A DNA stretch of 64,000 bases, taken from NCBI GenBank assembly GCA_951406725.2, contig OX597840.1, forward strand, positions 32,922,001-32,986,000. Reading direction: 5' to 3'. How positions within the stretch are numbered: the stretch's first letter is position 1; every line of letters begins with the position of its first letter. A program made the translations under genes and the position numbers. Under the pieces are notes generated by a model. The model saw nothing but the letters and a program-made list of their open reading frames with translations, made no database searches and was not told the DNA's origin. Source of the stretch: Octopus vulgaris (taxonomy: Eukaryota). This document shows, in pieces, positions 5,446 through 64,000 of this stretch.

Positions 5446-5478
<33 letters not shown>

Positions 5479-29225: not shown

Positions 29226-29325
29226 NNNNNNNNNNNNNNNNNNNNNNNNNNNNNNNNNNNNNNNNNNNNNNNNNNNNNNNNNNNNNNNNNNNNNNNNNNN
29301 NNNNNNNNNNNNNNNNNNNNNNNNN
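29226..29325. other. Assembly gap (100 N)
   Basis: Exactly 100 N, typical of a placeholder scaffold join. Confidence 0.99.
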
Positions 29326-30077
29326 AGTCTGGGCCTCTGCTTGTATAGCCATTGTTATGATCTGGCCCTGCCAAAATCCCTCCTCCTCCACTGTAGCTTG
29401 GAGGATGTTGATTTTTTCTTTCAGGCCCAGCATCACTGCCGCCACCAGGCATGAGGCGTCTGCCTCTGGGGGAATATTTCTCATTACTATCTTTGAAGTC
29501 CTTCTTCCTTTGTACAAGGGTAGAAGGACTAGATTTCCCGCTTTCTGAGGTTCTGTGGATAGCTTCTTAGCTATTTCTTCGGTTCTGAACCTCACTTCTA
29601 CTGTTCCGAACCGTCTTCCTCTATTGATGTAAGTGATATCTTTTCTGATTGTCTTCAGGCACTCCTCTATTTTGCATTCTTCCACTTTTTGTATGCTTTT
29701 TGTAGTCGTGCTGTATGTCTTGTATATAATTCTTTTCTTTTCTATCTCTTCCTTTTTTTCCATATCTTTTTTCACTGCAATTTCATTTCCTTCTTTCTTT
29801 AGAAGGTCTTCATATTTCTCTAGGTTTTCTATATCTATATCTTTCTGTTTGCGTCCAACAACTTCCGCAAACTTCTTTGTTGGGGCCTTTTGTTCTGGCG
29901 TTACCGCCGATTCTTTTTCCGGTGTCACCGCCGGCGTGCTTCTCTCACCCGAGGTTTGAGATTCTTCATCACCTGAGATGGGTGAATAGGTAATGGGGAA
30001 ATCCATTTCGAATTTTCCTTCCAGTTTGCATTCACTGCCTTCCAAAGACATTCTGGCTTTGCAGCCGTTAGTAGAAA

Positions 30078-30112
<35 letters not shown>

Positions 30113-30358
30113 AATGTGTTTCGTACACGAAGGCACACAATAATTCCCCCACGGGGGGAACTACGTACACAACCTTCGCGCGAAGGCCACTAACCGTCTT
30201 ATTGAAAAGACACAAAATAACAATATTAACACAGCAACAATAAACTACTAACTTTCAACAACACTATTTCAGACAAAAAACTCACGTTTCGTTTTTGAGA
30301 ATCAATGAATAAGTCAAAGTAACGTCCTGTCGGGTTCACGACTGCATAATGTTGGGTG
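29326..30358 (-). mobile_element. Partial unit 0 (5' region and N-terminal ORF1, cut by the gap)
   Basis: ORF1 ATG at 30051; poly(A) 30081-30111. Confidence 0.9.
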
Positions 30359-33300
30359 TTTTATTATTACCCACAAGGGGCCAACAAAGAGGGGACAATA
30401 CAACCTGATGTGGGGTCAGATTCACGTATGAGGTTACAAAAGTATGAGTTTAAAAATTTCAAAATTTACAAAAATTGCAAAAATTATAAAAATCGAATGA
30501 GAAAAACAGACCGGAAGACACTACAGGTGGAGTGGGGGCGGGTTCAGCTCGGACCCCACGAGCCCCGCCTCACCACTGATACTTTTGGTTTCGTTTTGAT
30601 CTACATTTATGTGGTGTCATTCATTCTCAACTTCCGTGCTACATCCTTCCATCGTTCTTCATACACTCTTTTAGTCAGGCATTTTCTCTCCAGCCCTATC
30701 TTCCTTTTCAGGTGGTAGATGAAGTAATTCATCAACCCAGGGCCGGATATGAACTTGCCTGACCGTATACCTTTCATTCTCGTCTTCCATATCACCTCCT
30801 TCGCAATTGCTACCACAACGAGAAAACAAGTCTTACCTTCTTTCGCGAGGAAATCTGGTGGGTCAATTTTTTAATACACTCAGTCGACAGCTGTACTCTT
30901 CGTGTGCTTGACAACAGCTGTTCGGCATAAACCCACACCTCAGACACGTCCGAACAATGAACAATAGCGTGCGGGACGGTTTCCCTATCCCGCCCGCATC
31001 TTGGACACATCGGACTGTCTTGGCCACCGTGCCTTGCGAGTTTATCCCGAACAGGTAGAGCTCCTCTGTAGCATTGCCATGCCAGAGACTTCTGGAAGTT
31101 GTCCAGAGTCTTCGGCTCGAACGTACGTCGGAACAGACTAGCCAGCTGATTATCGTCGAGACCCAGGGTTTCCCCCAAGGTGTCTTCACATTCCGCCTCT
31201 ACCAACCCTCTATAGAAGAATGTGGTGGAACCCCCACCGCAGGCGTTGCCCGAGCGACGGAATAGCAGGAGGGCCTTTCGACACTCCGTATACCATGTAC
31301 CGAGTTTCGATCTACGATTCAACCAGGTTTCCCATCCACCGAAACTAGTGAACTTGGGAAACATCAGTTTTGCTAACGGAGACCACACCCGTTCACCATC
31401 CAGGTAGAGCCACAGATGTCTTAACCTCAGCGCATGTCTGCGCATCATCAGCCAAGGCATCCCTAGCCCACCCTTTAACGGTTGTTGACAGCAAGTAGAG
31501 CGTTTCACAAGTGGTTTCCCGCCCTTCCACAGGAAGTAGAAGAGCTGTCTTTCCAACTTGGTCAACCACGAATCAGGGCATGGAACGACGGAAAGGCGGT
31601 AGATGATAACCGATGCGATAAACACATTGGCCACCTCCGCCCTCCCTTTCAAGGATAGCCACCGCCTAGACCAGGTCTTGGCTACTGCAGCCACCTTGCT
31701 CGTTACCTCGCCCCAATTCTTCTCTATTTGGAGGTCTGGACCGAACCAGACCCCTAGCAGTTTAATCGGACCCTCCGTCCAACGTCCCACGACGCTGTCA
31801 GGAGGCATCGACTTGCCTCTCCAGGTGCCGAGTTGCAAGCCGACTGACTTTTCGCGATTAACTTTTGCTCCTGTCACCGTCTCGTAATCCTCTATGGCCT
31901 TGCCTACTTTACATAGGTGGTCCATTTCGGTCACGATGATGGTGATGTCGTCCGCGTACGCTGACACTGATTTTCCATTACCTGGCTGTCTCGGGATGCC
32001 GCTCAGTTTTCGCAGTAATGGCTCAAGAGCCATCACGTACAAAAGCGGGGAGAGCGGACACCCTTGACGAACCGAGCGTTTGATTTTGAACGGCTTCGAC
32101 AAGAAGCCGTTCACCCGAACTACCGAGTCGATGTTGTCGTAAATTTGGATAATCCACCTGAGGAAGCCAAGGCCCAGCCCGAACTGTGCCAGAGCAGACA
32201 CCAGGTAACGATGGTCGACCCTATCAAAAGCTTTGGATTGGTCTAAATGGACCAGTGCCCCACCCTTGCCAGAATCACTATTAAACCCCTCTATAGTGTA
32301 CCGCATTAGATGGAGATTATCCTGAATGGTTCTGCCCGGAACGGCACATGTCTGTGCCTCCCCGATCAGACCATCCGCGACACGCGCCAATCTTTTCGAT
32401 AACACTTTGGCCAAAATCTTCAACTCTGTGTTTAGCAGAGTGATGGGCCTGAAATTATCAATGCACTCCCCCTTGCTCGGGTCCTTTCTGACGAGAGTCA
32501 CCACTCCCCGGCGCACAGATCTGGGTATCAACCCGTTCTGCTGCCAGTTCGCATAGACTTCCGCCAGTAGGTGCCCGAACAAGTCTGGCATATTCTTATA
32601 TAACTCGTAGGGTAGACCATCCAAACCCGGCGCCTTGCCCGCGCCGCAGTCCGCCATTGCCTCCACCACCTCCTCAGGCGTGATTGGCCCTTCACAGCCC
32701 TCCGCATCTCGCCCCGATAAGCGCGGCAGCCCGTCGAGTAGGTCCGTAAAGGCCCTCCTCCTATCCAGTCCGCCGCACTCACCGAAAAGCTGAGCGAAGT
32801 GCTCCTGAAAGGCCTCACACATCTCCTCGGGTTCGTCTATCAACTCACCTTGTTGGTTCTTCAAAGATCGAATCGTGGCATCGTTGCCATTCCGGGCTTC
32901 CACCACTCGGGCCCATCTCACGGCGTTGATTCCTTCACATCCCATATGACGGATTCTAGCCCTGACAATGCAGCCCATGTGTTTGGCCTCGAGGTGCTGG
33001 TTTAACACCAGTCTCTTGGACGCCACCTGAGCCGCAGAGCCAGTTTTCATGGCTTCCTCTAATTCCTTAACTAGAGTAGTTACCCTTCTAGCCTCTCTAG
33101 ACACTACTCCTATGCTATATCTAATAGACTCAAACTTGATGGCTCGTTTGAGGGCGTACCACCATTTGTTATTAATGATGGCACCAGACAGCGCCCTCTG
33201 AATTATGGTCCTAATCCGGTCTCTGTACTCCTTAATCGCCAAAAGGGACGTATTAAGTTTCCAGTAACCGGATCCTCTCTTTCTAACCTTATCTATGTCA

Positions 33301-35362
33301 AGCTTACAGGTGACCATTTTATGATCACTGTAGCTGATCGGGTAAAACTGTGGACGCTTAGCTATTTTACTGTCTACCTTTCTAATTAGAATTCTATCTA
33401 TGTATGACCTGGAAGATCCGTCGCTGTTTGACCATGTCCACAATGGAGCGTTCGGAAATTCCAACCTATAAGGATCTGCTAGCTCAAAGCGGCTTAGCAG
33501 TTCCAGGAAGCATGTTTACCTTTTCTATCATTCGAGCCAACACAATCTACATCCGCTTTGCAAATTGTGTTAAAGTCTCCTAGCACCAACTATTGAATGC
33601 GAAGTACCGAGAAAGTTCTCTAGATCACGATAATAATCACTTTGCCCATTATTACTGCAGGGTGCGTAAATTGCAACCAGTCTGATAACTTTACCGTTAC
33701 TGAACGTCAAATCCATGACGACCAGCCTACCTTCTGGGTCTGAAAAATTAACTTTTTCTCAAAAACCCGGTTTCTTTTTAGTAGGACCAACACCCCACTC
33801 CCGCCTGCAGGACTGCCAGGAGAGAAAAAACTCTCGTAGCCGTCAAACAGTGGGAGTAGATCTCTTGGCCCCTTTAACCGGGTTTCTGTAGCAACAATAA
33901 CATCCAAATTGCGCGACCTGATATCATTAAGGAAGCGACCTTGCTTCCCGCTTGATCCCAGGCCGCGCACATTTAAACAACCAACAGAAATGTAGTTCAT
34001 CACTTACCTTATATCGGTAGTTTGGCTTTTTCGGCGGTTTCGCCTTCTTCTTCATTTTTTTTCTTTGGCTCGTGGGGGAGTCCGACGTAGGCCCTCGTAT
34101 AGATATGGAGACATGTCCAGTCTCAGAGGGCCCACGTCGTGGAAGAACTCGGATTTTATCCTCCTGTAGTCCTTCCGGCCTATTTTATATATGATGAAGT
34201 CTTTCATCTTCCTTACACGTTCCACCTTGGCCATGGCTGCCAACACATTGACAAGTCTGTTGTTAGTAGCCTTAATGGCCATAAATGAAGAAGTAACCTC
34301 TTTCCTTTTCTTTAGGTTTTCTTCTTCTTGAGGGGTGGTTTCAGTTTTCCGTTTTTTTTTGGTAACTTTAGACCACCCCTCCTCTTTTTCGTTTTCTTTT
34401 TCCTTTTCTGCAGCTTTTTCCACCTCTTTGGTTTCCTTTTTTTCCTCCGTTTCTTCTTTCTCCGACGGTTCTTCTGTCTGCGGTTTCGGTTGACACTCCG
34501 CTCTCACGTGCCCCTTCTTTCCGCAGCCGAAGCACCTCGGTTTTCTTCCTTCTACAAATACTAGAACTCGCTCCTCCTCATCTAGCCTCAGCACCTCTGG
34601 TATTTCTTCCAGAGTCTGGGCCTCTGCTTGTATAGCCATTGTTATGATCTGGCCCTGCCAAAATCCCTCCTCCTCCACTGTAGCTTGGAGGATGTTGATT
34701 TTTCTTTCAGGCCCAGCATCACTGCCGCCACCAGGCATGAGGCGTCTGCCTCTGGGGGAATATTTCTCATTACTATCTTTGAAGTCCTTCTTCCTTTGTA
34801 CAAGGGTAGAAGGACTAGATTTCCCGCTTTCTGAGGTTCTGTGGATAGCTTCTTAGCTATTTCTTCGGTTCTGAACCTCACTTCTACTGTTCCGAACCGT
34901 CTTCCTCTATTGATGTAAGTGATATCTTTTCTGATTGTCTTCAGGCACTCCTCTATTTTGCATTCTTCCACTTTTTGTATGCTTTTTGTAGTCGTGCTGT
35001 ATGTCTTGTATATAATTCTTTTCTTTTCTATCTCTTCCTTTTTTTCCATATCTTTTTTCACTGCAATTTCATTTCCTTCTTTCTTTAGAAGGTCTTCATA
35101 TTTCTCTAGGTTTTCTATATCTATATCTTTTGTTTGCGTCCAACAACTTCCGCAAACTTCTTTGTTGGGGCCTTTTGTCCTGGCGTTACCGCCGATTCTT
35201 TTTCCGGTGTCACCGCCGGCGTGCTTCTCTCACCCGAGGTTTGAGATTCTTCATCACCTGAGATGGGTGAATAGGTAATGGGGAAATCCATTTCGAATTT
35301 TCCTTCCAGTTTGTATTCACTGCCTTCCAAAGACATTCTGGCTTTGCAGCCGTTAGTAGAAA

Positions 35363-35394
<32 letters not shown>

Positions 35395-35642
35395 GAATGT
35401 GTTTCGTACACGAAGGCACACAATAATTCCCCCACGGGGGGGAACTACGTACACAACCTTCGCGCGAAGGCCACTAACCGTCTTATTAAAAAGACACAAA
35501 ATAACAATATTAACACAGCAACAATAAACTACTAACTTTCAACAACACTATTTCAGACAAAAAACTCACGTTTCGTTTTTGAGAATCAATGAATAAGTCA
35601 AAGTAACGTCCTGTCGGGTTCACGACTGCATAATGTTGGGTG
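30359..35642 (-). mobile_element. LINE unit A (ORF1 and ORF2 frameshifted as assembled)
   Basis: ORF2 pieces 33707-34003, 30810-33464, 30607-30816; ORF1 pieces ~34052-35336; boundary set at the SINE-like tail. Confidence 0.9.
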
Positions 35643-38600
35643 TTTTATTATTACCCACAAGGGGCCAACAAAGAGGGGACAATACAACCTGATGTGGGGT
35701 CAGATTCACGTATGAGGTTACAAAAGTATGAGTTTAAAAATTTCAAAAATTCACAAAAATTGCAAAAATTATAAAAATCGAATGAGAAAAAACAGACCGG
35801 AAGACACTACAGGTGGAGTGGGGGCGGGTTCAGCTCGGACCCCACGAGCCCCGCCTCACCACTGATACTTTTGGTTTCGTTTTGATCTACATTTATGTGG
35901 TGTCATTCATTCTCAACTTCCGTGCTACATCCTTCCATCGTTCTTCATACACTCTTTTAGTCAGGCATTTTCTCTCCAGCCCTATCTTCCTTTTCAGGTG
36001 GTAGATGAAGTAATTCATCAACCCAGGGCCGGATATGAACTTGCCTGACCGTATACCTTTCATTCTCGTCTTCCATATCACCTCCTTCGCAATTGCTACC
36101 ACAACGAGAAAACAAGTCTTACCTTCTTTCGCGAGGAAATCTGGTGGGTCAATTTTTTTAATACACTCAGTCGACAGCTGTACTCTTCGTGTGCTTGACA
36201 ACAGCTGTTCGGCATAAACCCACACCTCAGACACGTCCGAACAATGAACAATAGCGTGCGGGACGGTTTCCCTATCCCGCCCGCATCTTGGACACATCGG
36301 ACTGTCTTGGCCACCGTGCCTTGCGAGTTTATCCCGAACAGGTAGAGCTCCTCTGTAGCATTGCCATGCCAGAGACTTCTGGAAGTTGTCCAGAGTCTTC
36401 GGCTCGAACGTACGTCGGAACAGACTAGCCAGCTGATTATCGTCGAGACCCAGGGTTTCCCCCAAGGTGTCTTCACATTCCGCCTCTACCAACCCTCTAT
36501 AGAAGAATGTGGTGGAACCCCCACCGCAGGCGTTGCCCGAGCGACGGAATAGCAGGAGGGCCTTTCGACACTCCGTATACCATGTACCGAGTTTCGATCT
36601 ACGATTCAACCAGGTTTCCCATCCACCGAAACTAGTGAACTTGGGAAACATCAGTTTTGCTAACGGAGACCACACCCGTTCACCATCCAGGTAGAGCCAC
36701 AGATGTCTTAACCTCAGCGCATGTCTGCGCATCATCAGCCAAGGCATCCCTAGCCCACCCTTTAACGGTTGTTGACAGCAAGTAGAGCGTTTCACAAGTG
36801 GTTTCCTGCCCTTCCACAGGAAGTAGAAGAGCTGTCTTTCCAACTTGGTCAACCACGAATCAGGGCATGGAACGACGGAAAGGCGGTAGATGATAACCGA
36901 TGCGATAAACACATTGGCCACCTCCGCCCTCCCTTTCAAGGATAGCCACCGCCTAGACCAGGTCTTGGCTACTGCAGCCACCTTGCTCGTTACCTCGCCC
37001 CAATTCTTCTCTATTTGGAGGTCTGGACCGAACCAGACCCCTAGCAGTTTAATCGGACCCTCCGTCCAACGTCCCACGACGCTGTCAGGAGGCATCGACT
37101 TGCCTCTCCAGGTGCCGAGTTGCAAGCCGACTGACTTTTCGCGATTAACTTTTGCTCCTGTCACCGTCTCGTAATCCTCTATGGCCTTGCCTACTTTACA
37201 TAGGTGGTCCATTTCGGTCACGATGATGGTGATGTCGTCCGCGTACGCTGACACTGATTTTCCATTACCTGGCTGTCTCGGGATGCCGCTCAGTTTTCGC
37301 AGTAATGGCTCAAGAGCCATCACGTACAAAAGCGGGGAGAGCGGACACCCTTGACGAACCGAGCGTTTGATTTTGAACGGCTTCGACAAGAAGCCGTTCA
37401 CCCGAACTACCGAGTCGATGTTGTCGTAAATTTGGATAATCCACCTGAGGAAGCCAAGGCCCAGCCCGAACTGTGCCAGAGCAGACACCAGGTAACGATG
37501 GTCGACCCTATCAAAAGCTTTGGATTGGTCTAAATGGACCAGTGCCCCACCCTTGCCAGAATCACTATTAAACCCCTCTATAGTGTACCGCATTAGATGG
37601 AGATTATCCTGAATGGTTCTGCCCGGAACGGCACATGTCTGTGCCTCCCCGATCAGACCATCCGCGACACGCGCCAATCTTTTCGATAACACTTTGGCCA
37701 AAATCTTCAACTCTGTGTTTAGCAGAGTGATGGGCCTGAAATTATCAATGCACTCCCCCTTGCTCGGGTCCTTTCTGACGAGAGTCACCACTCCCCGGCG
37801 CACAGATCTGGGTATCAACCCGTTCTGCTGCCAGTTCGCATAGACTTCCGCCAGTAGGTGCCCGAACAAGTCTGGCATATTCTTATATAACTCGTAGGGT
37901 AGACCATCCAAACCCGGCGCCTTGCCCGCGCCGCAGTCCGCCATTGCCTCCACCACCTCCTCAGGCGTGATTGGCCCTTCACAGCCCTCCGCATCTCGCC
38001 CCGATAGCGCGGCAGCCCGTCGAGTAGGTCCGTAAAGGCCCTCCTCCTATCCAGTCCGCCGCACTCACCGAAAAGCTGAGCGAAGTGCTCCTGAAAGGCC
38101 TCACACATCTCCTCGGGTTCGTCTATCAACTCACCTTGTTGGTTCTTCAAAGATCGAATCGTGGCATCGTTGCCATTCCGGGCTTCCACCACTCGGGCCC
38201 ATCTCACGGCGTTGATTCCTTCACATCCCATATGACGGATTCTAGCCCTGACAATGCAACCCATGTGTTTGGCCTCGAGGTGCTGGTTTAACACCAGTCT
38301 CTTGGACGCCACCTGAGCCGCAGAGCCAGTTTTCATGGCTTCCTCTAATTCCTTAACTAGAGTAGTTTCCCTTCTAGCCTCTCTAGACACTACTCCTATG
38401 CTATATCTAATAGACTCAAACTTGATGGCTCGTTTGAGGGCGTACCACCATTTGTTATTAATGATGGCACCAGACAGCGCCCTCTGAATTATGGTCCTAA
38501 TCCGGTCTCTGTACTCCTTAATCGCCAAAAGGGACGTATTAAGTTTCCAGTAACCGGATCCTCTCTTTCTAACCTTATCTATGTCAAGCTTACAGGTGAC

Positions 38601-40929
38601 CATTTTATGATCACTGTAGCTGATCGGGTAAAACTGTGGACGCTTAGCTATTTTACTGTCTACCTTTCTAATTAGAATTCTATCTATGTATGACCTGGAA
38701 GATCCGTCGCTGTTTGACCATGTCCACAATGGAGCGTTCGGAAATTCCAACCTATAAGGATCTGCTAGCTCAAAGCGGCTTAGCAGTTCCAGGAAGCATG
38801 TGTTACCTTTTCTATCATTCGAGCCAACACAATCTACATCCGCTTTGCAAATTGTGTTAAAGTCTCCTAGCATAACTATTGAATGCGAAGTACCGAGAAA
38901 GTTCTCTAGATCACGATAATAATCACTTTGCCCATTATTACTGCAGGGTGCGTAAATTGCAACCAGTCTGATAACTTTACCGTTACTGAACGTCAAATCC
39001 ATGACGACCAGCCTACCTTCTGGGTCTGAAAAAATTAACTTTTTTCTCAAAAACCCGGTTTCTTTTTAGTAGGACCAACACCCCACTCCCGCCTGCAGGA
39101 CTGCCAGGAGAGAAAAAACTCTCGTAGCCGTCAAACAGTGGGAGTAGATCTCTTGGCCCCTTTAACCGGGTTTCTGTAGCAACAATAACATCCAAATTGC
39201 GCGACCTGATATCATTAAGGAAGCGACCTTGCTTCCCGCTTGATCCCAGGCCGCGCACATTTAAACAACCAACAGAAATGTAGTTCATCACTTACCTTAT
39301 ATCGGTAGTTTGGCTTTTTCGGCGGTTTCGCCTTCTTCTTCATTTTTTTTTCTTTGGCTCGTGGGGGAGTCCGACGTAGGCCCTCGTATAGATATGGAGA
39401 CATGTCCAGTCTCAGAGGGCCCACGTCGTGGAAGAACTCGGATTTTATCCTCCTGTAGTCCTTCCGGCCTATTTTATATATGATGAAGTCTTTCATCTTC
39501 CTTACACGTTCCACCTTGGCCATGGCTGCCAACACATTGACAAGTCTGTTGTTAGTAGCCTTAATGGCCATAAATGAAGAAGTAACCTCTTTCCTTTTCT
39601 TTAGGTTTTCTTCTTCTTGAGGGGTGGTTTCAGTTTTCCGTTTTTTTTGGTAACTTTAGACCACCCCTCCTCTTTTTCGTTTTCTTTTTCCTTTTCTGCA
39701 GCTTTTTCCACCTCTTTGGTTTCCTTTTTTTCCTCCGTTTCTTCTTTCTCCGACGGTTCTTCTGTCTGCGGTTTCGGTTGACACTCCGCTCTCACGTGCC
39801 CCTTCTTTCCGCAGCCGAAGCACCTCGGTTTTCTTCCTTCTACGAATACTAGAACTCGCTCCTCCTCATCTAGCCTCAGCACCTCTGGTATTTCTTCCAG
39901 AGTCTGGGCCTCTGCTTGTATAGCCATTGTTATGATCTGGCCCTGCCAAAATCCCTCCTCCTCCACTGTAGCTTGGAGGATGTTGATTTTTTCTTTCAGG
40001 CCCAGCATCACTGCCGCCACCAGGCATGAGGCGTCTGCCTCTGGGGGAATATTTCTCATTACTATCTTTGAAGTCCTTCTTCCTTTGTACAAGGGTAGAA
40101 GGACTAGATTTCCCGCTTTCTGAGGTTCTGTGGATAGCTTCTTAGCTATTTCTTCGGTTCTGAACCTCACTTCTACTGTTCCGAACCGTCTTCCTCTATT
40201 GATGTAAGTGATATCTTTTCTGATTGTCTTCAGGCACTCCTCTATTTTGCATTCTTCCACTTTTTGTATGCTTTTTGTAGTCGTGCTGTATGTCTTGTAT
40301 ATAATTCTTTTCTTTTCTATCTCTTCCTTTTTTTCCATATCTTTTTTCACTGCAATTTCATTTCCTTCTTTCTTTAGAAGGTCTTCATATTTCTCTAGAT
40401 TTTCTATATCTATATCTTTCTGTTTGCGTCCAACAACTTCCGCAAACTTCTTTGTTGGGGCCTTTTGTTCTGGCGTTACCGCCGATTCTTTTTCCGGTGT
40501 CACCGCCGGCGTGCTTCTCTCACCCGAGGTTTGAGATTCTTCATCACCTGAGATGGGTGAATAGGTAATGGGGAAATCCATTTCGAATTTTCCTTCCAGT
40601 TTGCATTCACTGCCTTCCAAAGACATTCTGGCTTTGCAGCCGTTAGTAGAAAATATTTTTTTTTTTTTTTTTTTTTTTTTTTGAATGTGTTTCGTACACG
40701 AAGGCACACAATAATTCCCCCACGGGGGGGAACTACGTACACAACCTTCGCGCGAAGGCCACTAACCGTCTTATTAAAAGACACAAAATAACAATATTAA
40801 CACAGCAACAATAAACTACTAACTTTCAACAACACTATTTCAGACAAAAAACTCACGTTTCGTTTTTGAGAATCAATGAATAAGTCAAAGTAACGTCCTG
40901 TCGGGTTCACGACTGCATAATGTTGGGTG
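35643..40929 (-). mobile_element. LINE unit B (frameshifted as assembled)
   Basis: ORF2 pieces 39013-39291, 37815-39050, 35893-37956; ORF1 39215-40626 with one shift. Confidence 0.9.
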
Positions 40930-41180
40930 TTTTATTATTACCCACAAGGGGCCAACAAAGAGGGGACAATACAACCTGATGTGGGGTCAGATTCACGTAT
41001 GAGGTTACAAAAGTATGAGTTTAAAAATTTCAAAAATTTACAAAAATTGCAAAAATTATAAAAATCGAATGAGAAAAAAACAGACCGGAAGACACTACAG
41101 GTGGAGTGGGGGCGGGTTCAGCTCGGACCCCACGAGCCCCGCCTCACCACTGATACTTTTGGTTTCGTTTTGATCTACAT

Positions 41181-45915: not shown

Positions 45916-45941
45916 TCTGGCTTTGCAGCCGTTAGTAGAAA

Positions 45942-45976
<35 letters not shown>

Positions 45977-46223
45977 AATGTGTTTCGTACACGAAGGCAC
46001 ACAATAATTCCCCCACGGGGGGGGAACTACGTACACAACCTTCGCGCGAAGGCCACTAACCGTCTTATTAAAAGACACAAAATAACAATATTAACACAGC
46101 AACAATAAACTACTAACTTTCAACAACACTATTTCAGACAAAAAACTCACGTTTCGTTTTTGAGAATCAATGAATAAGTCAAAGTAACGTCCTGTCGGGT
46201 TCACGACTGCATAATGTTGGGTG

Positions 46224-51238: not shown

Positions 51239-51275
<37 letters not shown>

Positions 51276-51519
51276 GTGTTTCGTACACGAAGGCACACAA
51301 TAATTCCCCCACGGGGGGGGAACTACGTACACAACCTTCGCGCGAAGGCCACTAACCGTCTTATTAAAAGACACAAAATAACAATATTAACACAGCAACA
51401 ATAAACTACTAACTTTCAACAACACTATTTCAGACAAAAAACTCACGTTTCGTTTTTGAGAATCAATGAATAAGTCAAAGTAACGTCCTGTCGGGTTCAC
51501 GACTGCATAATGTTGGGTG
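46224..51519 (-). mobile_element. LINE unit D
   Basis: ORF2 46474-49868 with a 1-nt loss in a C-run at ~47040; ORF1 has a 4-nt GAAT duplication at ~51140. Confidence 0.9.
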
Positions 51520-54500: not shown

Positions 54501-56532
54501 TGATCGGGTAAAACTGTGGACGCTTAGCTATTTTACTGTCTACCTTTCTAATTAGAATTCTATCTATGTATGACCTGGAAGATCCGTCGCTGTTTGACCA
54601 TGTCCACAATGGAGCGTTCGGAAATTCCAACCTATAAGGATCTGCTAGCTCAAAGCGGCTTAGCAGTTCCAGGAAGCATGTGTTACCTTTTCTATCATTC
54701 GAGCCAACACAATCTACATCCGCTTTGCAAATTGTGTTAAAGTCTCCTAGCATAACTATTGAATGCGAAGTACCGAGAAAGTTCTCTAGATCACGATAAT
54801 AATCACTTTGCCCATTATTACTGCAGGGTGCGTAAATTGCAACCAGTCTGATAACTTTACCGTTACTGAACGTCAAATCCATGACGACCAGCCTACCTTC
54901 TGGGTCTGAAAAAATTAACTTTTTCTCAAAAACCCGGTTTCTTTTTAGTAGGACCAACACCCCACTCCCGCCTGCAGGACTGCCAGGAGAGAAAAAACTC
55001 TCGTAGCCGTCAAACAGTGGGAGTAGATCTCTTGGCCCCTTTAACCGGGTTTCTGTAGCAACAATAACATCCAAATTGCGCGACCTGATATCATTAAGGA
55101 AGCGACCTTGCTTCCCGCTTGATCCCAGGCCGCGCACATTTAAACAACCAACAGAAATGTAGTTCATCACTTACCTTATATCGGTAGTTTGGCTTTTTCG
55201 GCGGTTTCGCCTTCTTCTTCATTTTTTTTTTCTTTGGCTCGTGGGGGAGTCCGACGTAGGCCCTCGTATAGATATGGAGACATGTCCAGTCTCAGAGGGC
55301 CCACGTCGTGGAAGAACTCGGATTTTATCCTCCTGTAGTCCTTCCGGCCTATTTTATATATGATGAAGTCTTTCATCTTCCTTACACGTTCCACCTTGGC
55401 CATGGCTGCCAACACATTGACAAGTCTGTTGTTAGTAGCCTTAATGGCCATAAATGAAGAAGTAACCTCTTTCCTTTTCTTTAGGTTTTCTTCTTCTTGA
55501 GGGGTGGTTTCAGTTTTCCGTTTTTTTTGGTAACTTTAGACCACCCCTCCTCTTTTTCGTTTTCTTTTTCCTTTTCTGCAGCTTTTTCCACCTCTTTGGT
55601 TTCCTTTTTTTCCTCCGTTTCTTCTTTCTCCGACGGTTCTTCTGTCTGCGGTTTCGGTTGACACTCCGCTCTCACGTGCCCCTTCTTTCCGCAGCCGAAG
55701 CACCTCGGTTTTCTTCCTTCTACAAATACTAGAACTCGCTCCTCCTCATCTAGCCTCAGCACCTCTGGTATTTCTTCCAGAGTCTGGGCCTCTGCTTGTA
55801 TAGCCATTGTTATGATCTGGCCCTGCCAAAATCCCTCCTCCTCCACTGTAGCTTGGAGGATGTTGATTTTTTCTTTCAGGCCCAGCATCACTGCCGCCAC
55901 CAGGCATGAGGCGTCTGCCTCTGGGGGAATATTTCTCATTACTATCTTTGAAGTCCTTCTTCCTTTGTACAAGGGTAGAAGGACTAGATTTCCCGCTTTC
56001 TGAGGTTCTGTGGATAGCTTCTTAGCTATTTCTTCGGTTCTGAACCTCACTTCTACTGTTCCGAACCGTCTTCCTCTATTGATGTAAGTGATATCTTTTC
56101 TGATTGTCTTCAGGCACTCCTCTATTTTGCATTCTTCCACTTTTTGTATGCTTTTTGTAGTCGTGCTGTATGTCTTGTATATAATTCTTTTCTTTTCTAT
56201 CTCTTCCTTTTTTTCCATATCTTTTTTCACTGCAATTTCATTTCCTTCTTTCTTTAGAAGGTCTTCATATTTCTCTAGGTTTTCTATATCTATATTTTTC
56301 TGTTTGCGTCCAACAACTTCCGCAAACTTCTTTGTTGGGGCCTTTTGTCCTGGCGTTACCGCCGATTCTTTTTCCGGTGTCACCGCCGGCGTGCTTCTCT
56401 CACCCGAGGTTTGAGATTCTTCATCACCTGAGATGGGTGAATAGGTAATGGGGAAATCCATTTCGAATTTTCCTTCCAGTTTGTATTCACTGCCTTCCAA
56501 AGACATTCTGGCTTTGCAGCCGTTAGTATAAA

Positions 56533-56567
<35 letters not shown>

Positions 56568-56816
56568 AATGTGTTTCGTACACGAAGGCACACAATAATT
56601 CCCCCACGGGGGGGGGAACTACGTACACAACCTTCGCGCGAAGGCCACTAACCGTCTTATTAAAAAGACACAAAATAACAATATTAACACAGCAACAATA
56701 AACTACTAACTTTCAACAACACTATTTCAGACAAAAAACTCACGTTTCGTTTTTGAGAATCAATGAATAAGTCAAAGTGACGTCCTGTCGGGTTCACGAC
56801 TGCATAATGTTGGGTG
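51520..56816 (-). mobile_element. LINE unit E (ORF2 intact)
   Basis: ORF2 51772-55167 open; ORF1 55176-56506 with one homopolymer shift. Confidence 0.92.
51772..55167 (-). CDS. ORF2 APE-RT-CCHC, second intact copy
   Basis: Same motifs as unit C, with a few substitutions (E>V, E>G, T>A, N>D). Confidence 0.97.
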   Translation of the reverse strand: MNYISVGCLNVRGLGSSGKQGRFLNDIRSRNLDVIVATETRLKGPRDLLPLFDGYESFFSPGSPAGGSGVLVLLKRNRVFEKKLIFSDPEGRLVVMDLTFSNGKVIRLVAIYAPCSNNGQSDYYRDLENFLGTSHSIVMLGDFNTICKADVDCVGSNDRKGNTCFLELLSRFELADPYRLEFPNAPLWTWSNSDGSSRSYIDRILIRKVDSKIAKRPQFYPISYSDHKMVTCKLDIDKVRKRGSGYWKLNTSLLAIKEYRDRIRTIIQRALSGAIINNKWWYALKRAIKFESIRYSIGVVSREARRVTTLVKELEEAMKTGSAAQVASKRLVLNQHLEAKHMGCIVRARIRHMGCEGINAVRWARVVEARNGNDATIRSLKNQQGELIDEPEEMCEAFQEHFAQLFGECGGLDRRRAFTDLLDGLPRLSGRDAEGCEGPITPEEVVEAMADCGAGKAPGLDGLPYELYKNMPDLFGHLLAEVYANWQQNGLIPRSVRRGVVTLVRKDPSKGECIDNFRPITLLNTELKILAKVLSKRLARVADGLIGEAQTCAVPGRTIQDNLHLMRYTIEGFNSDSGKGGALVHLDQSKAFDRVDHRYLVSALAQFGLGLGFLRWIIQIYDNIDSVVRVNGFLSKPFKIKRSVRQGCPLSPLLYVMALEPLLRKLSGIPRQPGNGKSVSAYADDITIIVTEMDHLCKVGKAIEDYETVTGAKVNREKSVGLQLGTWRGKSMPPDSVVGRWTEGPIKLLGVWFGPDLQIEKNWGEVTSKVAAVAKTWSRRWLSLKGRAEVANVFIASVIIYRLSVVPCPDSWLTKLERQLFYFLWKGRKPLVKRSTCCQQPLKGGLGMPWLMMRRHALRLRHLWLYLDGERVWSPLAKLMFPKFTSFGGWETWLNRRSKLGTWYTECRKALLLFRRSGNACGGGSTTFFYRGLVEAECEDTLGETLGLDDNQLASLFRRTFGPKTLDNFQKSLAWQCYRGALPVRDKLARHGGQDSPMCPRCGRDRETVPHAIVHCSDVSEVWVYAEQLLSSTRRVQLSTECIKKIDPPDFLAKEGKTCFLVVVAIAKEVIWKTRMKGIRSGKFISGPGLMNYFIYHLKRKIGLERKCLTKRVYEERWKDVARKLRMDDTT

Positions 56817-59800
56817 TTTTATTATTACCCACAAGGGGCCAACAAAGAGGGGACAATACAACCTGATGTGGGGTCAGATTCACGTATGAGGTTACAAAAG
56901 TATGAGTTTAAAAATTTCAAAAATTCACAAAAATTGCAAAAATTATAAAAATCGAATGAGAAAAAAACAGACCGGAAGACACTACAGGTGGAGTGGGGGC
57001 GGGTTCAGCTCGGACCCCACGAGCCCCGCCTCACCACTGATACTTTTGGTTTCGTTTTGATCTACATTTATGTGGTGTCATTCATTCTCAACTTCCGTGC
57101 TACATCCTTCCATCGTTCTTCATACACTCTTTTAGTCAGGCATTTTCTCTCCAGCCCTATCTTCCTTTTCAGGTGGTAGATGAAGTAATTCATCAACCCA
57201 GGGCCGGATATGAACTTGCCTGACCGTATACCTTTCATTCTCGTCTTCCATATCACCTCCTTCGCAATTGCTACCACAACGAGAAAACAAGTCTTACCTT
57301 CTTTCGCGAGGAAATCTGGTGGGTCAATTTTTTTAATACACTCAGTCGACAGCTGTACTCTTCGTGTGCTTGACAACAGCTGTTCGGCATAAACCCACAC
57401 CTCAGACACGTCCGAACAATGAACAATAGCGTGCGGGACGGTTTCCCTATCCCGCCCACATCTTGGACACATCGGACTGTCTTGGCCACCGTGCCTTGCG
57501 AGTTTATCCCGAACAGGTAGAGCTCCTCTGTAGCATTGCCATGTCAGAGACTTCTGGAAGTTGTCCAGAGTCTTCGGCTCGAACGTACGTCGGAACAGAC
57601 TAGCCAGCTGATTATCGTCGAGACCCAGGGTTTCCCCCAAGGTGTCTTCACATTCCGCCTCTACCAACCCTCTATAGAAGAATGTGGTGGAACCCCCACC
57701 GCAGGCGTTGCCCGAGCGACGGAATAGCAGGAGGGCCTTTCGACACTCCGTATACCATGTACCGAGTTTCGATCTACGATTCAACCAGGTTTCCCATCCA
57801 CCGAAACTAGTGAACTTGGGAAACATCAGTTTTGCTAACGGAGACCACACCCGTTCACCATCCAGGTAGAGCCACAGATGTCTTAACCTCAGCGCATGTC
57901 TGCGCATCATCAGCCAAGGCATCCCTAGCCCACCCTTTAACGGTTGTTGACAGCAAGTAGAGCGTTTCACAAGTGGTTTCCTGCCCTTCCACAGGAAGTA
58001 GAAGAGCTGTCTTTCCAACTTGGTCAACCACGAATCAGGGCATGGAACGACGGAAAGGCGGTAGATGATAACCGATGCGATAAACACATTGGCCACCTCC
58101 GCCCTCCCTTTCAAGGATAGCCACCGCCTAGACCAGGTCTTGGCTACTGCAGCCACCTTGCTCGTTACCTCGCCCCAATTCTTCTCTATTTGGAGGTCTG
58201 GACCGAACCAGACCCCTAGCAGTTTAATCGGACCCTCCGTCCAACGTCCCACGACGCTGTCAGGAGGCATCGACTTGCCTCTCCAGGTGCCGAGTTGCAA
58301 GCCGACTGACTTTTCGCGATTAACTTTTGCTCCTGTCACCGTCTCGTAATCCTCTATGGCCTTGCCTACTTTACATAGGTGGTCCATTTCGGTCACGATG
58401 ATGGTGATGTCGTCCGCGTACGCTGACACTGATTTTCCATTACCTGGCTGTCTCGGGATGCCGCTCAGTTTTCGCAGTAATGGCTCAAGAGCCATCACGT
58501 ACAAAAGCGGGGAGAGCGGACACCCTTGACGAACCGAGCGTTTGATTTTGAACGGCTTCGACAAGAAGCCGTTCACCCGAACTACCGAGTCGATGTTGTC
58601 GTAAATTTGGATAATCCACCTGAGGAAGCCAAGGCCCAGCCCGAACTGTGCCAGAGCAGACACCAGGTAACGATGGTCGACCCTATCAAAAGCTTTGGAT
58701 TGGTCTAAATGGACCAGTGCCCCACCCTTGCCAGAATCACTATTAAACCCCTCTATAGTGTACCGCATTAGATGGAGATTATCCTGAATGGTTCTGCCCG
58801 GAACGGCACATGTCTGTGCCTCCCCGATCAGACCATCCGCGACACGCGCCAATCTTTTCGATAACACTTTGGCCAAAATCTTCAACTCTGTGTTTAGCAG
58901 AGTGATGGGCCTGAAATTATCAATGCACTCCCCTTGCTCGGGTCCTTTCTGACGAGAGTCACCACTCCCCGGCGCACAGATCTGGGTATCAACCCGTTCT
59001 GCTGCCAGTTCGCATAGACTTCCGCCAGTAGGTGCCCGAACAAGTCTGGCATATTCTTATATAACTCGTAGGGTAGACCATCCAAACCCGGCGCCTTGCC
59101 CGCGCCGCAGTCCGCCATTGCCTCCACCACCTCCTCAGGCGTGATTGGCCCTTCACAGCCCTCCGCATCTCGCCCCGATAGGCGCGGCAGCCCGTCGAGT
59201 AGGTCCGTAAAGGCCCTCCTCCTATCCAGTCCGCCGCACTCACCGAAAAGCTGAGCGAAGTGCTCCTGAAAGGCCTCACACATCTCCTCGGGTTCGTCTA
59301 TCAACTCACCTTGTTGGTTCTTCAAAGATCGAATCGTGGCATCGTTGCCATTCCGGGCTTCCACCACTCGGGCCCATCTCACGGCGTTGATTCCTTCACA
59401 TCCCATATGACGGATTCTAGCCCTGACAATGCAGCCCATGTGTTTGGCCTCGAGGTGCTGGTTTAACACCAGTCTCTTGGACGCCACCTGAGCCGCAGAG
59501 CCAGTTTTCATGGCTTCCTCTAATTCCTTAACTAGAGTAGTTACCCTTCTAGCCTCTCTAGACACTACTCCTATGCTATATCTAATAGACTCAAACTTGA
59601 TGGCTCGTTTGAGGGCGTACCACCATTTGTTATTAATGATGGCACCAGACAGCGCCCTCTGAATTATGGTCCTAATCCGGTCTCTGTACTCCTTAATCGC
59701 CAAAAGGGACGTATTAAGTTTCCAGTAACCGGATCCTCTCTTTCTAACCTTATCTATGTCAAGCTTACAAGTGACCATTTTATGATCACTGTAGCTGATC

Positions 59801-61827
59801 GGGAAAAACTGTGGACGCTTAGCTATTTTACTGTCTACCTTTCTAATTAGAATTCTATCTATGTATGACCTGGAAGATCCGTCGCTGTTTGACCATGTCC
59901 ACAATGGAGCGTTCGGAAATTCCAACCTATAAGGATCTGCTAGCTCAAAGCGGCTTAGCAGTTCCAGGAAGCATGTGTTACCTTTTCTATCATTCGAGCC
60001 AACACAATCTACATCCGCTTTGCAAATTGTGTTAAAGTCTCCTAGCATAACTATTGAATGCGAAGTACCGAGAAAGTTCTCTAGATCACGATAATAATCA
60101 CTTTGCCCATTATTACTGCAGGGTGCGTAAATTGCAACCAGTCTGATAACTTTACCGTTACTGAACGTCAAATCCATGACGACCAGCCTACCTTCTGGGT
60201 CTGAAAAAATTAACTTTTTCTCAAAAACCCGGTTTCTTTTTAGTAGGACCAACACCCCACTCCCGCCTGCAGGACTGCCAGGAGAGAAAAAACTCTCGTA
60301 GCCGTCAAACAGTGGGAGTAGATCTCTTGGCCCCTTTAACCGGGTTTCTGTAGCAACAATAACATCCAAATTGCGCGACCTGATATCATTAAGGAAGCGA
60401 CCTTGCTTCCCGCTTGATCCCAGGCCGCGCACATTTAAACAACCAACAGAAATGTAGTTCATCACTTACCTTATATCGGTAGTTTGGCTTTTTCGGCGGT
60501 TTCGCCTTCTTCTTCATTTTTTTTTTCTTTGGCTCGTGGGGGAGTCCGACGTAGGCCCTCGTATAGATATGGAGACATGTCCAGTCTCAGAGGGCCCACG
60601 TCGTGGAAGAACTCGGATTTTATCCTCCTGTAGTCCTTCCGGCCTATTTTATATATGATGAAGTCTTTCATCTTCCTTACACGTTCCACCTTGGCCATGG
60701 CTGCCAACACATTGACAAGTCTGTTGTTAGTAGCCTTAATGGCCATAAATGAAGAAGTAACCTCTTTCCTTTTCTTTAGGTTTTCTTCTTCTTGAGGGGT
60801 GGTTTCAGTTTTCCGTTTTTTTTGGTAACTTTAGACCACCCCTCCTCTTTTTCGTTTTCTTTTTCCTTTTCTGCAGCTTTTTCCACCTCTTTGGTTTCCT
60901 TTTTTTCCTCCGTTTCTTCTTTCTCCGACGGTTCTTCTGTCTGCGGTTTCGGTTGACACTCCGCTCTCACGTGCCCCTTCTTTCCGCAGCCGAAGCACCT
61001 CGGTTTTCTTCCTTCTACGAATACTAGAACTCGCTCCTCCTCATCTAGCCTCAGCACCTCTGGTATTTCTTCCAGAGTCTGGGCCTCTGCTTGTATAGCC
61101 ATTGTTATGATCTGGCCCTGCCAAAATCCCTCCTCCTCCACTGTAGCTTGGAGGATGTTGATTTTTTCTTTCAGGCCCAGCATCACTGCCGCCACCAGGC
61201 ATGAGGCGTCTGCCTCTGGGGGAATATTTCTCATTACTATCTTTGAAGTCCTTCTTCCTTTGTACAAGGGTAGAAGGACTAGATTTCCCGCTTTCTGAGG
61301 TTCTGTGGATAGCTTCTTAGCTATTTCTTCTGTTCTGAACCTCACTTCTACTGTTCCGAACCGTCTTCCTCTATTGATGTAAGTGATATCTTTTCTGATT
61401 GTCTTCAGGCACTCCTCTATTTTGCATTCTTCCACTTTTTGTATGCTTTTTGTAGTCGTGCTGTATGTCTTGTATATAATTCTTTTCTTTTCTATCTCTT
61501 CCTTTTTTTCCATATCTTTTTTCACTGCAATTTCATTTCCTTCTTTCTTTAGAAGGTCTTCATATTTCTCTAGGTTTTCTATATCTATATCTTTCTGTTT
61601 GCGTCCAACAACTTCCGCAAACTTCTTTGTTGGGGCCTTTTGTTCTGGCGTTACCGCCGATTCTTTTTCCGGTGTCACCGCCGGCGTGCTTCTCTCACCC
61701 GAGGTTTGAGATTCTTCATCACCTGAGATGGGTGAATAGGTAATGGGGAAATCCATTTCGAATTTTCCTTCCAGTTTGTATTCACTGCCTTCCAAAGACA
61801 TTCTGGCTTTGCAGCCGTTAGTAGAAA

Positions 61828-61859
<32 letters not shown>

Positions 61860-62106
61860 GAATGTGTTTCGTACACGAAGGCACACAATAATTCCCCCAC
61901 GGGGGGGAACTACGTACACAACCTTCGCGCGAAGGCCACTAACCGTCTTATTAAAAGACACAAAATAACAATATTAACACAGCAACAATAAACTACTAAC
62001 TTTCAACAACACTATTTCAGACAAAAAACTCACGTTTCGTTTTTGAGAATCAATGAATAAGTCAAAGTGACGTCCTGTCGGGTTCACGACTGCATAATGT
62101 TGGGTG
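56817..62106 (-). mobile_element. LINE unit F
   Basis: ORF2 57068-60462 with a 1-nt loss in a C-run at ~58930; ORF1 60471-61801 with one shift. Confidence 0.9.
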
Positions 62107-64000
62107 TTTTATTATTACCCACAAGGGGCCAACAAAGAGGGGACAATACAACCTGATGTGGGGTCAGATTCACGTATGAGGTTACAAAAGTATGAGTTTA
62201 AAAATTTCAAAAATTCACAAAAATTGCAAAAATTATAAAAATCGAATGAGAAAAAACAGACCGGAAGACACTACAGGTGGAGTGGGGGCGGGTTCAGCTC
62301 GGACCCCACGAGCCCCGCCTCACCACTGATACTTTTGGTTTCGTTTTGATCTACATTTATGTGGTGTCATTCATTCTCAACTTCCGTGCTACATCCTTCC
62401 ATCGTTCTTCATACACTCTTTTAGTCAGGCATTTTCTCTCCAGCCCTATCTTCCTTTTCAGGTGGTAGATGAAGTAATTCATCAACCCAGGGCCGGATAT
62501 GAACTTGCCTGACCGTATACCTTTCATTCTCGTCTTCCATATCACCTCCTTCGCAATTGCTACCACAACGAGAAAACAAGTCTTACCTTCTTTCGCGAGG
62601 AAATCTGGTGGGTCAATTTTTTTAATACACTCAGTCGACAGCTGTACTCTTCGTGTGCTTGACAACAGCTGTTCGGCATAAACCCACACCTCAGACACGT
62701 CCGAACAATGAACAATAGCGTGCGGGACGGTTTCCCTATCCCGCCCGCATCTTGGACACATCGGACTGTCTTGGCCACCGTGCCTTGCGAGTTTATCCCG
62801 AACAGGTAGAGCTCCTCTGTAGCATTGCCATGTCAGAGACTTCTGGAAGTTGTCCAGAGTCTTCGGCTCGAACGTACGTCGGAACAGACTAGCCAGCTGA
62901 TTATCGTCGAGACCCAGGGTTTCCCCCAAGGTGTCTTCACATTCCGCCTCTACCAACCCTCTATAGAAGAATGTGGTGGAACCCCCACCGCAGGCGTTGC
63001 CCGAGCGACGGAATAGCAGGAGGGCCTTTCGACACTCCGTATACCATGTACCGAGTTTCGATCTACGATTCAACCAGGTTTCCCATCCACCGAAACTAGT
63101 GAACTTGGGAAACATCAGTTTTGCTAACGGAGACCACACCCGTTCACCATCCAGGTAGAGCCACAGATGTCTTAACCTCAGCGCATGTCTGCGCATCATC
63201 AGCCAAGGCATCCCTAGCCCACCCTTTAACGGTTGTTGACAGCAAGTAGAGCGTTTCACAAGTGGTTTCCTGCCCTTCCACAGGAAGTAGAAGAGCTGTC
63301 TTTCCAACTTGGTCAACCACGAATCAGGGCATGGAACGACGGAAAGGCGGTAGATGATAACCGATGCGATAAACACATTGGCCACCTCCGCCCTCCCTTT
63401 CAAGGATAGCCACCGCCTAGACCAGGTCTTGGCTACTGCAGCCACCTTGCTCGTTACCTCGCCCCAATTCTTCTCTATTTGGAGGTCTGGACCGAACCAG
63501 ACCCCTAGCAGTTTAATCGGACCCTCCGTCCAACGTCCCACGACGCTGTCAGGAGGCATCGACTTGCCTCTCCAGGTGCCGAGTTGCAAGCCGACTGACT
63601 TTTCGCGATTAACTTTTGCTCCTGTCACCGTCTCGTAATCCTCTATGGCCTTGCCTACTTTACATAGGTGGTCCATTTCGGTCACGATGATGGTGATGTC
63701 GTCCGCGTACGCTGACACTGATTTTCCATTACCTGGCTGTCTCGGGATGCCGCTCAGTTTTCGCAGTAATGGCTCAAGAGCCATCACGTACAAAAGCGGG
63801 GAGAGCGGACACCCTTGACGAACCGAGCGTTTGATTTTGAACGGCTTCGACAAGAAGCCGTTCACCCGAACTACCGAGTCGATGTTGTCGTAAATTTGGA
63901 TAATCCACCTGAGGAAGCCAAGGCCCAGTCCGAACTGTGCCAGAGCAGACACCAGGTAACGATGGTCGACCCTATCAAAAGCTTTGGATTGGTCTAAATG
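62107..64000 (-). mobile_element. Partial unit G (3' UTR and C-terminal half of ORF2); array runs past the window edge
   Basis: ORF2 is open from the window edge to the stop at 62357. Confidence 0.92.

Follow-up and report, generated by a model that had tools for sequence, protein, structure and literature searches.

The window analysed here, a stretch of 64,000 nucleotides of the Octopus vulgaris genome (contig OX597840.1, positions 32,922,001 to 32,986,000), contains a head-to-tail array of putative Tx1-like retrotransposons whose reality is confirmed. This array probably lies in a landing site used by several families of elements, where it would have grown by repeated insertion in the same orientation, neighbouring units being then duplicated locally.

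The array and the boundaries of its units

Self-BLAST of the window reveals a direct repeat of ~5.29 kb, at 99.5-99.65% identity, that spans positions 29326-64000 with every unit on the minus strand, and the six full units delimited by their A-tracts are 5285-5298 bp long and differ pairwise by 2-14 substitutions. Together with the APE, RT and zf-RVT domains of ORF2, these data bear out the preliminary description of a long, one-orientation array of near-identical two-ORF units of Tx1/L1 type. Inside the array, TRF detects only the T-run of the unit itself and a 9/19-bp repeat.

The position of the unit boundary had to be revised. It had first been set at a poly(A) tract, a candidate that was rejected, as this A27-31 tract (45945..45975 in unit W5, and the same in every unit) lies inside the 5' UTR and is not a tail: the ends of arrays at other genomic loci place the true boundary ~250 bp before it, and the homologous place in sister subfamilies carries A5-A10, ~30 nt before the ORF1 ATG. 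Repeat annotation can thus wrongly set a LINE boundary at an internal A-tract in this case. The units terminate at AATAATAAAACA, their 3' ends in the window being at 62105, 56815, 51518, 46222, 40928, 35641 and 30357, and one and the same 18-mer is present at all seven true junctions. The earlier statement that all seven junctions are alike therefore holds for these true junctions, but not for the A-tract junctions on which it was made, since among the seven units one carries an additional TA there and one a substitution.

Read along the minus strand, the array comprises in the window the 3' part of its first unit, W1 (62105..64000), which starts outside the window, followed by W2 (56815..62104), W3 (51518..56814), W4 (46222..51517), W5 (40928..46221), a natural copy taken as reference, W6 (35641..40927), W7 (30357..35640) and the 5' 1.03 kb of W8 (29326..30356). 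The 5' edge of the array is found 3.4 kb right of the window, at G000:C27:32989399 (window 67399). On the other side, a scaffold gap of 100 N (29226..29325) cuts W8 and forms the left edge of the array in the window, so that the SINE-rich left half, previously presented as a contrasting neighbour, is separated from the array by this gap and not shown to adjoin it. At the break point, the window stops at unit base 1034 and the unplaced contig C58 begins at base 1035. C58 likely continues the array, which terminates in an ORF1-only element, and the whole array likely counts 12 units over ~63-63.5 kb.

It is very improbable that the array is an artefact of assembly, produced by repeat expansion or haplotype stacking. 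Such an origin would fit an array that stops at a scaffold gap and whose continuation is unplaced, a further locus at a distance of 1.1 Mb whose upstream 6 kb are 98% identical and which is also gap-ended, and flanking TIRs without a common TSD, the array being described here from the assembly. Nevertheless, structured substitutions, locus-specific TSDs that fit empty alleles, arrays of mixed families and a continuity exact at 1034/1035 are hard to obtain by error. The copy number of 12 and the near-identical pairs may be off.

The element

In W5, ORF1 (44503..45915) has 470 codons and ORF2 (41181..44576) encodes 1131 aa with an APE endonuclease, an RT with a YADD motif and a C-terminal zinc motif, Pfam assigning PF03372 (APE), PF00078 (RT) and PF13966 (zf-RVT) with catalytic motifs present. 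The best solved relative of ORF2 is human L1 ORF2p (E 2.6e-71, residues 3-867), ahead of R2 (1e-24), and this comparison of structural relatives places the RT in the L1 group rather than with the R2 type. The 40 homologues are mostly unnamed, an automatic TX1 name being attached to one weak match. A separate ORF1 with a CCHC knuckle is a feature of the Tx1 clade, whereas a poly(A) tail and a Transposase_22-type ORF1 characterize vertebrate-type L1. One C-X2-C-X4-H-X4-C knuckle is present in all eight ORF1s examined, that of W5 included, while no poly(A) was seen at the 3' ends read and no Pfam match on ORF1. As judged from its sequence, the element would thus be a Tx1-like non-LTR retrotransposon of the L1 group.

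ORF2 is open over 1131 aa in two of the six complete window units (in W3, at 55167-51772), most window copies being frameshifted as assembled. The 442-443-aa ORF1 of two natural copies at other loci is not found among the window ORF1s, that of W5 reaching 470 codons because of a homopolymer indel. In the unit alignment, 21 of 32 gap columns fall in homopolymers, and some of the frame breaks may therefore be consensus errors.

The true 3' UTR of W5 (40928..41180, ~250 nt) is devoid of poly(A), and the last ~45 nt of the element 3' UTR resemble the tail of the tRNA-type SINEs of the window, which makes this LINE a candidate partner of an abundant SINE. At the other end, the 5' leader is shown, at the level of sequence comparison, to be built from landing-site sequence: the leader of W5 (46155..46223, 69 nt) consists of three stacked pieces, which match landing-site variants at other loci over 16/17, 16/18 and 22/24 nt.

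A landing site shared by several families

While no target was recognisable according to the preliminary description, the right flank of the array, outside the window, consists of a landing site of ~100 bp that is present in many copies, with dozens of loci where it is either empty or occupied. Genome-wide, it has 76 exact anchors; a search with the upstream flank gave 126 candidates, and among the 40 listed, 30 loci were read, 14 of them empty and 16 filled (L062 was scored as filled from its 5' UTR ahead of a gap), with every insert in sense orientation. The occupants belong to the array's own family or to autonomous sister families, or are ORF1-only elements; in all, the site is used by four or more autonomous lineages and by three ORF1-only forms. 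Self-targeting, one of the options initially put forward, is among the likely contributors.

Regarding the 42 exact 3'-end matches, 37 are followed by the leader of another element or by the site and five by unrelated DNA; 36 lie in site loci, one is the inner junction of an off-site dimer and five are dispersed. According to the available part of PMC4494074, an element is target-specific when >20% of its flanks fall in one target type, which is the case here, even though the five dispersed copies indicate that targeting is not strict.

None of the multicopy targets considered at first, namely snRNA genes, tRNA genes, 5S and microsatellites, was recognised in Rfam and tRNA scans of the window, in Rfam scans of six flank loci or in the site sequence itself. 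More precisely, the window contains no tRNA and nothing that reaches the Rfam gathering score, the six flank loci gave only sub-threshold matches, mostly to miRNA models, with the three alignments shown lying on AT/GT repeats, and the site sequence is not a microsatellite.

Insertions have TSDs of 13-24 bp, no clean match being returned by the TSD script at three of 15 loci. Empty alleles match three filled loci, L071 being that of the dimer at C27:19.66 Mb, L076 that of a single copy on C8 and L054 that of the dimer at C30:13.36 Mb, and in another run, X9, the joints 4092>9364 and 4104>9362 bypass the element in L137. The cut lies 38-41 bases from a TATA-like motif in six of the 12 other loci, which share ancestry, and at 29, 34, 59, 66, 81 or 86 in the rest; the cuts spread over ~60 bp of differing local sequence. 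Only eight of 29 loci have an initiator-like TCA[G/T] at 30-35, and the older form of the site lacks it.

Two ways of placing the cut can be proposed. A loose endonuclease preference combined with leader homology has about an even chance of being responsible, and placement by distance from a promoter-bound factor is conceivable but somewhat doubtful. Similarly, the chances are balanced that transcription starts in the landing site, each round copying site sequence into the leader. The octamer TATTTAAA would serve as a distance marker in the landing site for both the start-site and the position-targeting readings.

The carrier transposon

Young copies of the site are shown to sit in a Merlin-like non-autonomous TIR transposon. 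Its TIR is 265 bp long and starts with GG, inverted pairs are 98-99% identical, and an 8-bp TSD flanks five of nine such pairs, being absent at three and uninformative at one. A same-strand left TIR is found within 60 kb upstream of 24 of the 76 anchors, compared to 0/76 in the control direction and 0.07 expected. No exact TIR is present near the other 52 anchors; 14 of these loci were read, and all but one fall in an older site subfamily, the landing site being older than its capture by the Merlin-like carrier. A left TIR lies 10.6 kb upstream of the window array, and C58 holds the downstream half of the site and a right TIR, but these two TIRs have no common 8-bp TSD; this carrier copy is thus recombinant, or C58 comes from a paralogue or the other haplotype.

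When empty, the carrier composite reaches about 23 kb (the copies examined measure 6.2 kb and 23.6 kb). Its cargo consists of RTE, mariner, Tc1-like and Helitron-like fragments, the labels RTE, CR1-like and Helitron-like being presumptive, as they were assigned by eye. A multicopy host gene was considered as carrier and discarded, the ORFs seen in the flanks being simple repeats and transposon fragments. Compared to the Merlin definition in the available part of PMC8101967 (TIR of 24-462 bp, terminal GG, 8-9-bp TSD), the carrier agrees in its terminal GG and TIR length, an 8-bp TSD being seen in 5/9 pairs but not for the window and C58 TIRs. It departs from the definition by a very large composite cargo, and no IS1016-like DDE transposase was recognised by eye in the ORFs of the 6.2-kb and 23.6-kb copies.

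Growth of the array

Since a tree of 40 units had low support within the young family, a pairwise substitution matrix was used instead. W1 and W2 differ by three substitutions and W4-W6 by 2-3, a level that can be noise, since polishing affects such counts in a repeat array. The remaining window pairs differ by 7-12, which equals their distance from copies on other chromosomes. W1 differs by 12 substitutions from W4 and by eight from C30b_1, on another chromosome: the units are not mutually closer than they are to outside copies, contrary to what a single founder would give. Besides, two neighbouring C58 units share one mosaic segment from a sister family.

These data bear on the idea that unequal crossover alone turned one inserted copy into a macrosatellite, possibly a structural or piRNA-source locus. 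Although the identical leader at all junctions of the window array and the near-identity of neighbours speak for it, this scenario is quite improbable in view of the several unit lineages, as distant as copies on other chromosomes, the two units with the sister-family mosaic, the ORF1-only element at the array end, the interstitial positions, and the short arrays present in the same site at no fewer than eight other loci. The unequal crossover suggested earlier is retained as a likely contributor, and its single founder is not. The subtelomeric position suggested for the locus is not supported either: C27 measures 40.2 Mb, the window being at 32.9 Mb, and the sister arrays are interstitial on C27, C30, C22, C24 and C10.

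Other loci illustrate how units accumulate. The units of the dimer at C30:13.36 Mb are 27 substitutions apart and have different junctions, the three units at C22:14.18 Mb are 51-115 substitutions apart, and at C3:93.39 Mb the 23 bp duplicated by an upstream ORF1-only element comprise the beginning of the element downstream of it. In mixed arrays, the autonomous families are 79-97% identical in ORF2, and ORF1-only elements gave no ORF2 match in the three tested.

Alternatively, read-through concatemers could be the main builder, transcripts passing a weak 3' end and multi-unit RNAs being inserted as blocks. The element has no poly(A) tail, and at C15:65.74 Mb a two-unit, 10.5-kb dimer lies off site within one perfect 15-bp TSD, its inner junction being seen again at two C10 loci. 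However, this dimer could have arisen in two steps, as a separate 16-bp duplication, made by the upstream unit, lies in the leader of the downstream one; junctions are mostly locus-specific and fit the empty allele of the same locus; and whole copying of a 63-kb transcript would be unlikely. Concatemers as the main builder are thus improbable. Among the joints listed (15 of 166, and 12 of 44 in a second table), none is head-to-tail. As regards the single leader at all window and C58 junctions, duplication-only and concatemer models predict it likewise.

Repeated insertion followed by local duplication would proceed as follows. Target-primed reverse transcription would duplicate the target, and an intact target would thereby stay at the 5' edge of the array, open to further hits. 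Unequal exchange would then copy neighbours, as in W1-W2, W4-W6 and the C58 mosaic pair, and the non-autonomous carrier would move sites, filled or empty, among chromosomes.

Comparison with known systems

HeT-A, TART and TAHRE of Drosophila belong to the Jockey group, another clade than that of the octopus element, and HeT-A is devoid of RT. As far as the available part of PMC10088271 goes, the octopus arrays resemble theirs by the head-to-tail, one-orientation arrangement and the mixing of autonomous and ORF1-only elements, but insertions make TSDs and chromosome-end placement is not observed for the arrays on C27, C30, C22, C24 and C10.

The available part of PMC4494074 describes Tx1 of Xenopus laevis in Tx1D, crocodilian Tx1-Mar and SINEU-3 in Mariner-N4_AMi, and Tx1-9_AMi in Harbinger, and raises transcription from the flanking transposon. 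As in octopus, the Tx1-type LINEs described there favour one site within a DNA transposon that is itself non-autonomous, a TSD is sandwiched between tandem inserts and non-autonomous partners use the same target. The octopus system differs by its Merlin-like composite host, up to 23 kb when empty, with a site that predates capture, by the number of its users (four or more autonomous lineages, three ORF1-only forms), by its arrays of up to 12 full units and by cuts over ~60 bp; no long arrays of full-length elements are described in that part of the source.

In the accessible portion of 10.1101/158386, the R1 tandem array of Drosophila melanogaster is presented with double insertion as a route to satellites. 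Both systems associate a site-specific non-LTR element, a duplicated target between units, and double insertion followed by unequal exchange, whereas the R1 target is rDNA and the octopus target a mobile site that is not an RNA gene, and the octopus array comes from several founders instead of one dimer. Finally, from what is available of PMC5006619, Dictyostelium TRE5/TRE3 are APE-RT-zinc elements with a favoured distance from a promoter element and no strict sequence, a likeness only suggested for the octopus element; they target tRNA genes via TFIIIB, while no tRNA or Rfam gene is found near the octopus site (six flank loci).

In the part of PMC13282606 available, L1-Tx1 appears only as a table row among recently active families. 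The octopus landing-site system was not found in the literature searched, which covered neither Repbase Reports, subscription papers nor supplements, where families or target may be described. The grouping of cuts 38-41 bases from the TATA-like motif and the dimer within one TSD are new observations. A landing pad for several families, with leaders taken from captured site sequence, would likewise be new.

Implications

A joint reading, tentative and rather unlikely as a whole, would bring these features together as a guild of promoter-borrowing Tx1 elements. The shared landing pad would be a mobile TATA-type Pol II core promoter on DNA-transposon composites, downstream of which autonomous and ORF1-only families would cut at a set distance in any local sequence. 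The elements would be transcribed from the pad and take up its start region as stacked leaders, and would oust one another from the promoter-proximal slot, giving mixed interstitial arrays reminiscent of HeT-A/TART, which would move again as read-through dimers or within the carrier. If this were true, the tRNA-type SINE, which is abundant and has the shared 3' tail, would be moved by that machinery too.

It can now be tested if Tx1 elements that target transposons recognise a sequence or a position, and if the target is their promoter. The genome offers a series of intermediates, from the empty site to the single copy, the dimer, the mixed array and the 12-mer, with young elements that have open ORFs, and these intermediates illustrate the route to satellite DNA that has been proposed to begin with double insertion.

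Repeat structure and target site

Self-comparison of the window bears out the one-orientation array of ~5.29-kb repeats in the preliminary description: the periodicity runs through 29326-64000 at 99.5-99.65% identity between repeats, every unit is on the minus strand, and the array is real. Its left edge is a 100-N gap, and six units delimited by their A-tracts differ by 2-14 substitutions. ORF2 (44576-41181, 1131 aa) combines APE, RT and zf-RVT domains, its nearest solved structure being human L1 ORF2p, while ORF1 has a single CCHC knuckle. Elsewhere in the window, a 4.8-kb (ACAT)n array (3536-8334; ~1200 copies at 96%) is a source of long spurious ORFs.

The flanks of arrays on different chromosomes are alike over 4-6 kb at 95-99%. 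With the upstream 151 bp as query, 126 candidate sites were obtained, 40 of which were listed and 30 of these read; 14 were empty and 16 filled, always in sense orientation. The element has a multicopy landing site of ~100 bp; the preliminary description had recognised no target. The exact 3' ends of the window family (n=42) fall in site loci in 36 cases, in an off-site dimer in one and at dispersed positions in five. Insertions carry target-site duplications (TSDs) of 13-24 bp, three of the filled loci are matched by empty alleles, and in one sequencing run (X9) two joints bypass exactly the element of locus L137.

The carrier transposon

The young sites, in which a TATA-like octamer lies 74-139 bp from the downstream 30-mer, are embedded in a long element with 265-bp terminal inverted repeats (TIRs) beginning with GG, and 8-bp TSDs flank five of nine inverted TIR pairs. 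These characters agree with the features stated for Merlin in PMC8101967. No transposase was identified among the ORFs of the 6.2-kb and 23.6-kb carrier copies, judged by eye. The cargo includes mariner and Tc1-like fragments, together with pieces judged by eye to be RTE and Helitron-like; the ends of an inner segment, whose 5' motif has 15 exact copies, are reminiscent of HINE/Helentron elements. The genome contains 992 copies of the initial 18 nt of the TIR. Among the 76 exact genomic copies of the downstream 30-mer, 24 are preceded on their own strand by an exact left TIR, against none in the control direction, and 52 lack a nearby exact TIR. Fourteen of the latter were read: 13 represent an older site subfamily, mostly 92-96% alike, in which the empty site is nearly constant, and three of the 14 have a Tx1-type tail.

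Several carrier copies, including that at C13:49.868 Mb, hold in their downstream part an extended CTG/CAG-type triplet tract, along with a 70-bp minisatellite that is rich in GC and varies in length. A diverged (88%) TIR copy lies in the left half of the window (12687-12855). At C4:29914636-29980207, a TIR pair 65.6 kb apart with matching 8-bp TSD bounds what would be a very large non-autonomous element, lacking the exact 30-mer.

Unit boundaries and extent of the array

When the stretch from the ORF2 stop to the A-tract was searched against the genome, matches ended at base ~252 or began at ~253. Mapping of eight regions showed that every array ends at AATAATAAAA(C/G)A and begins just past that point of the sequence, so that the A-tract lies inside the 5' UTR; in its place, A5-A10 is present in sister subfamilies. 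The preliminary description had proposed locating the array ends, and one was found: the array starts at C27:32989399, 3.4 kb beyond the right side of the window. The break falls at unit base 1034, and the unplaced contig C58, which has an identical leader variant, opens at base 1035. C58 contains the remainder of the broken unit, four further units, an ORF1-only element of 1.29 kb and the downstream half of the site. We infer that the array continues on C58; the paper join has 12 units over 63.5 kb, and its outer TIRs share no TSD.

At C27:31864226-31885000, 1.1 Mb away from the window, lies another locus with a like upstream 6 kb (98%) and an identical first junction, but its inner junctions are unlike those of the window array and it also terminates in a gap; it is either a paralogue or the other haplotype. 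Other arrays contain rearranged units, with an inverted block at C10:43.62-43.64 Mb and one unit with an internal deletion and shuffle at C22:14.23 Mb.

Array growth

Units differ by 27 substitutions in a two-unit array and by 51-115 in a three-unit array, with different lineages and junctions in both. At C3:93.39 Mb, the 23-bp duplication of the upstream element takes in the start of the downstream one, and the upstream element was therefore inserted later. Within the window array, numbered from right to left, W1-W2 and W4-W6 form near-identical blocks, although such small substitution differences may be polishing noise; two adjacent C58 units share one mosaic segment, and the remaining window-array units diverge as far as copies on other chromosomes do. 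Several lineages, mosaic units and this divergence led us to reject a single-founder macrosatellite, and with it the earlier proposal of a LINE amplified by unequal crossover, in so far as this would act alone. Arrays probably grow by repeated insertion at a regenerated target, followed by local duplication of neighbouring units, as described for the R1 array in 10.1101/158386. Against this model of insertion and duplication stands the single leader common to all junctions of the window array.

An off-site two-unit dimer (C15:65.73-65.75 Mb) has a single perfect 15-bp outer TSD; this suggests that read-through copies are also mobile, and formation by two-step insertion fits too.

Transcription and families using the site

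Three stacked pieces make up the initial 69 nt of the unit, each matching a variant of the site found elsewhere in the genome (16/17, 16/18 and 22/24 nt); the following 61 nt match none of these variants well. As the leader is built of such pieces, its sequence suggests that transcripts begin in the site. The duplicated stretch begins 38-41 bases from the TATTTAAA octamer at six of the 12 resolved loci (3 of 15 were unresolved), with differing local sequence, and the offset is 29-86 at the other six; 8 of 29 loci show an initiator-like motif, a weak signal. The Tx1-like element is hypothesized to borrow its promoter from the site; transcription from a flanking transposon is likewise raised for SINEU in PMC4494074. 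An 11-nt word preceded by a T-rich run is common to the bases before ORF1 (45915-45945) and the downstream part of the site (L188-L201), after which comes a splice-donor-like motif; site and 5' UTR may be of common origin.

The site hosts autonomous lineages, whose ORF2 shares 79-97% identity with that of the window element, as well as ORF1-only elements (1.3, 1.7 and 1.9 kb) that carry related tails and give no ORF2 match; both kinds occur singly and in mixed arrays. That these form a multi-family guild of promoter borrowers is less likely than not. The window also contains tRNA-type SINEs (10608-10975, 21999-22365, 24491-24898), whose terminal ~45 nt are 83-88% identical to the 3' end of the LINE (best E 1e-7, versus 0.03 for the best of 20 shuffles); several are head-to-tail dimers, the second unit beginning ~12 or ~44 nt into the SINE head. 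On sequence grounds, the two are candidate partners.

Relation to known systems

The element likely belongs to Tx1 proper. A telomeric array and, from Rfam searches of the window and six flank loci, an RNA-gene-targeting family were rejected, and the subtelomeric option raised earlier is not supported. The octopus system works like the transposon-targeting families Tx1/Tx1D, Tx1-Mar and Tx1-9_AMi described in PMC4494074, and combines this targeting with the double-insertion route of R1 outlined in 10.1101/158386. It was not found in the literature searched, Repbase and supplements lying outside that search.
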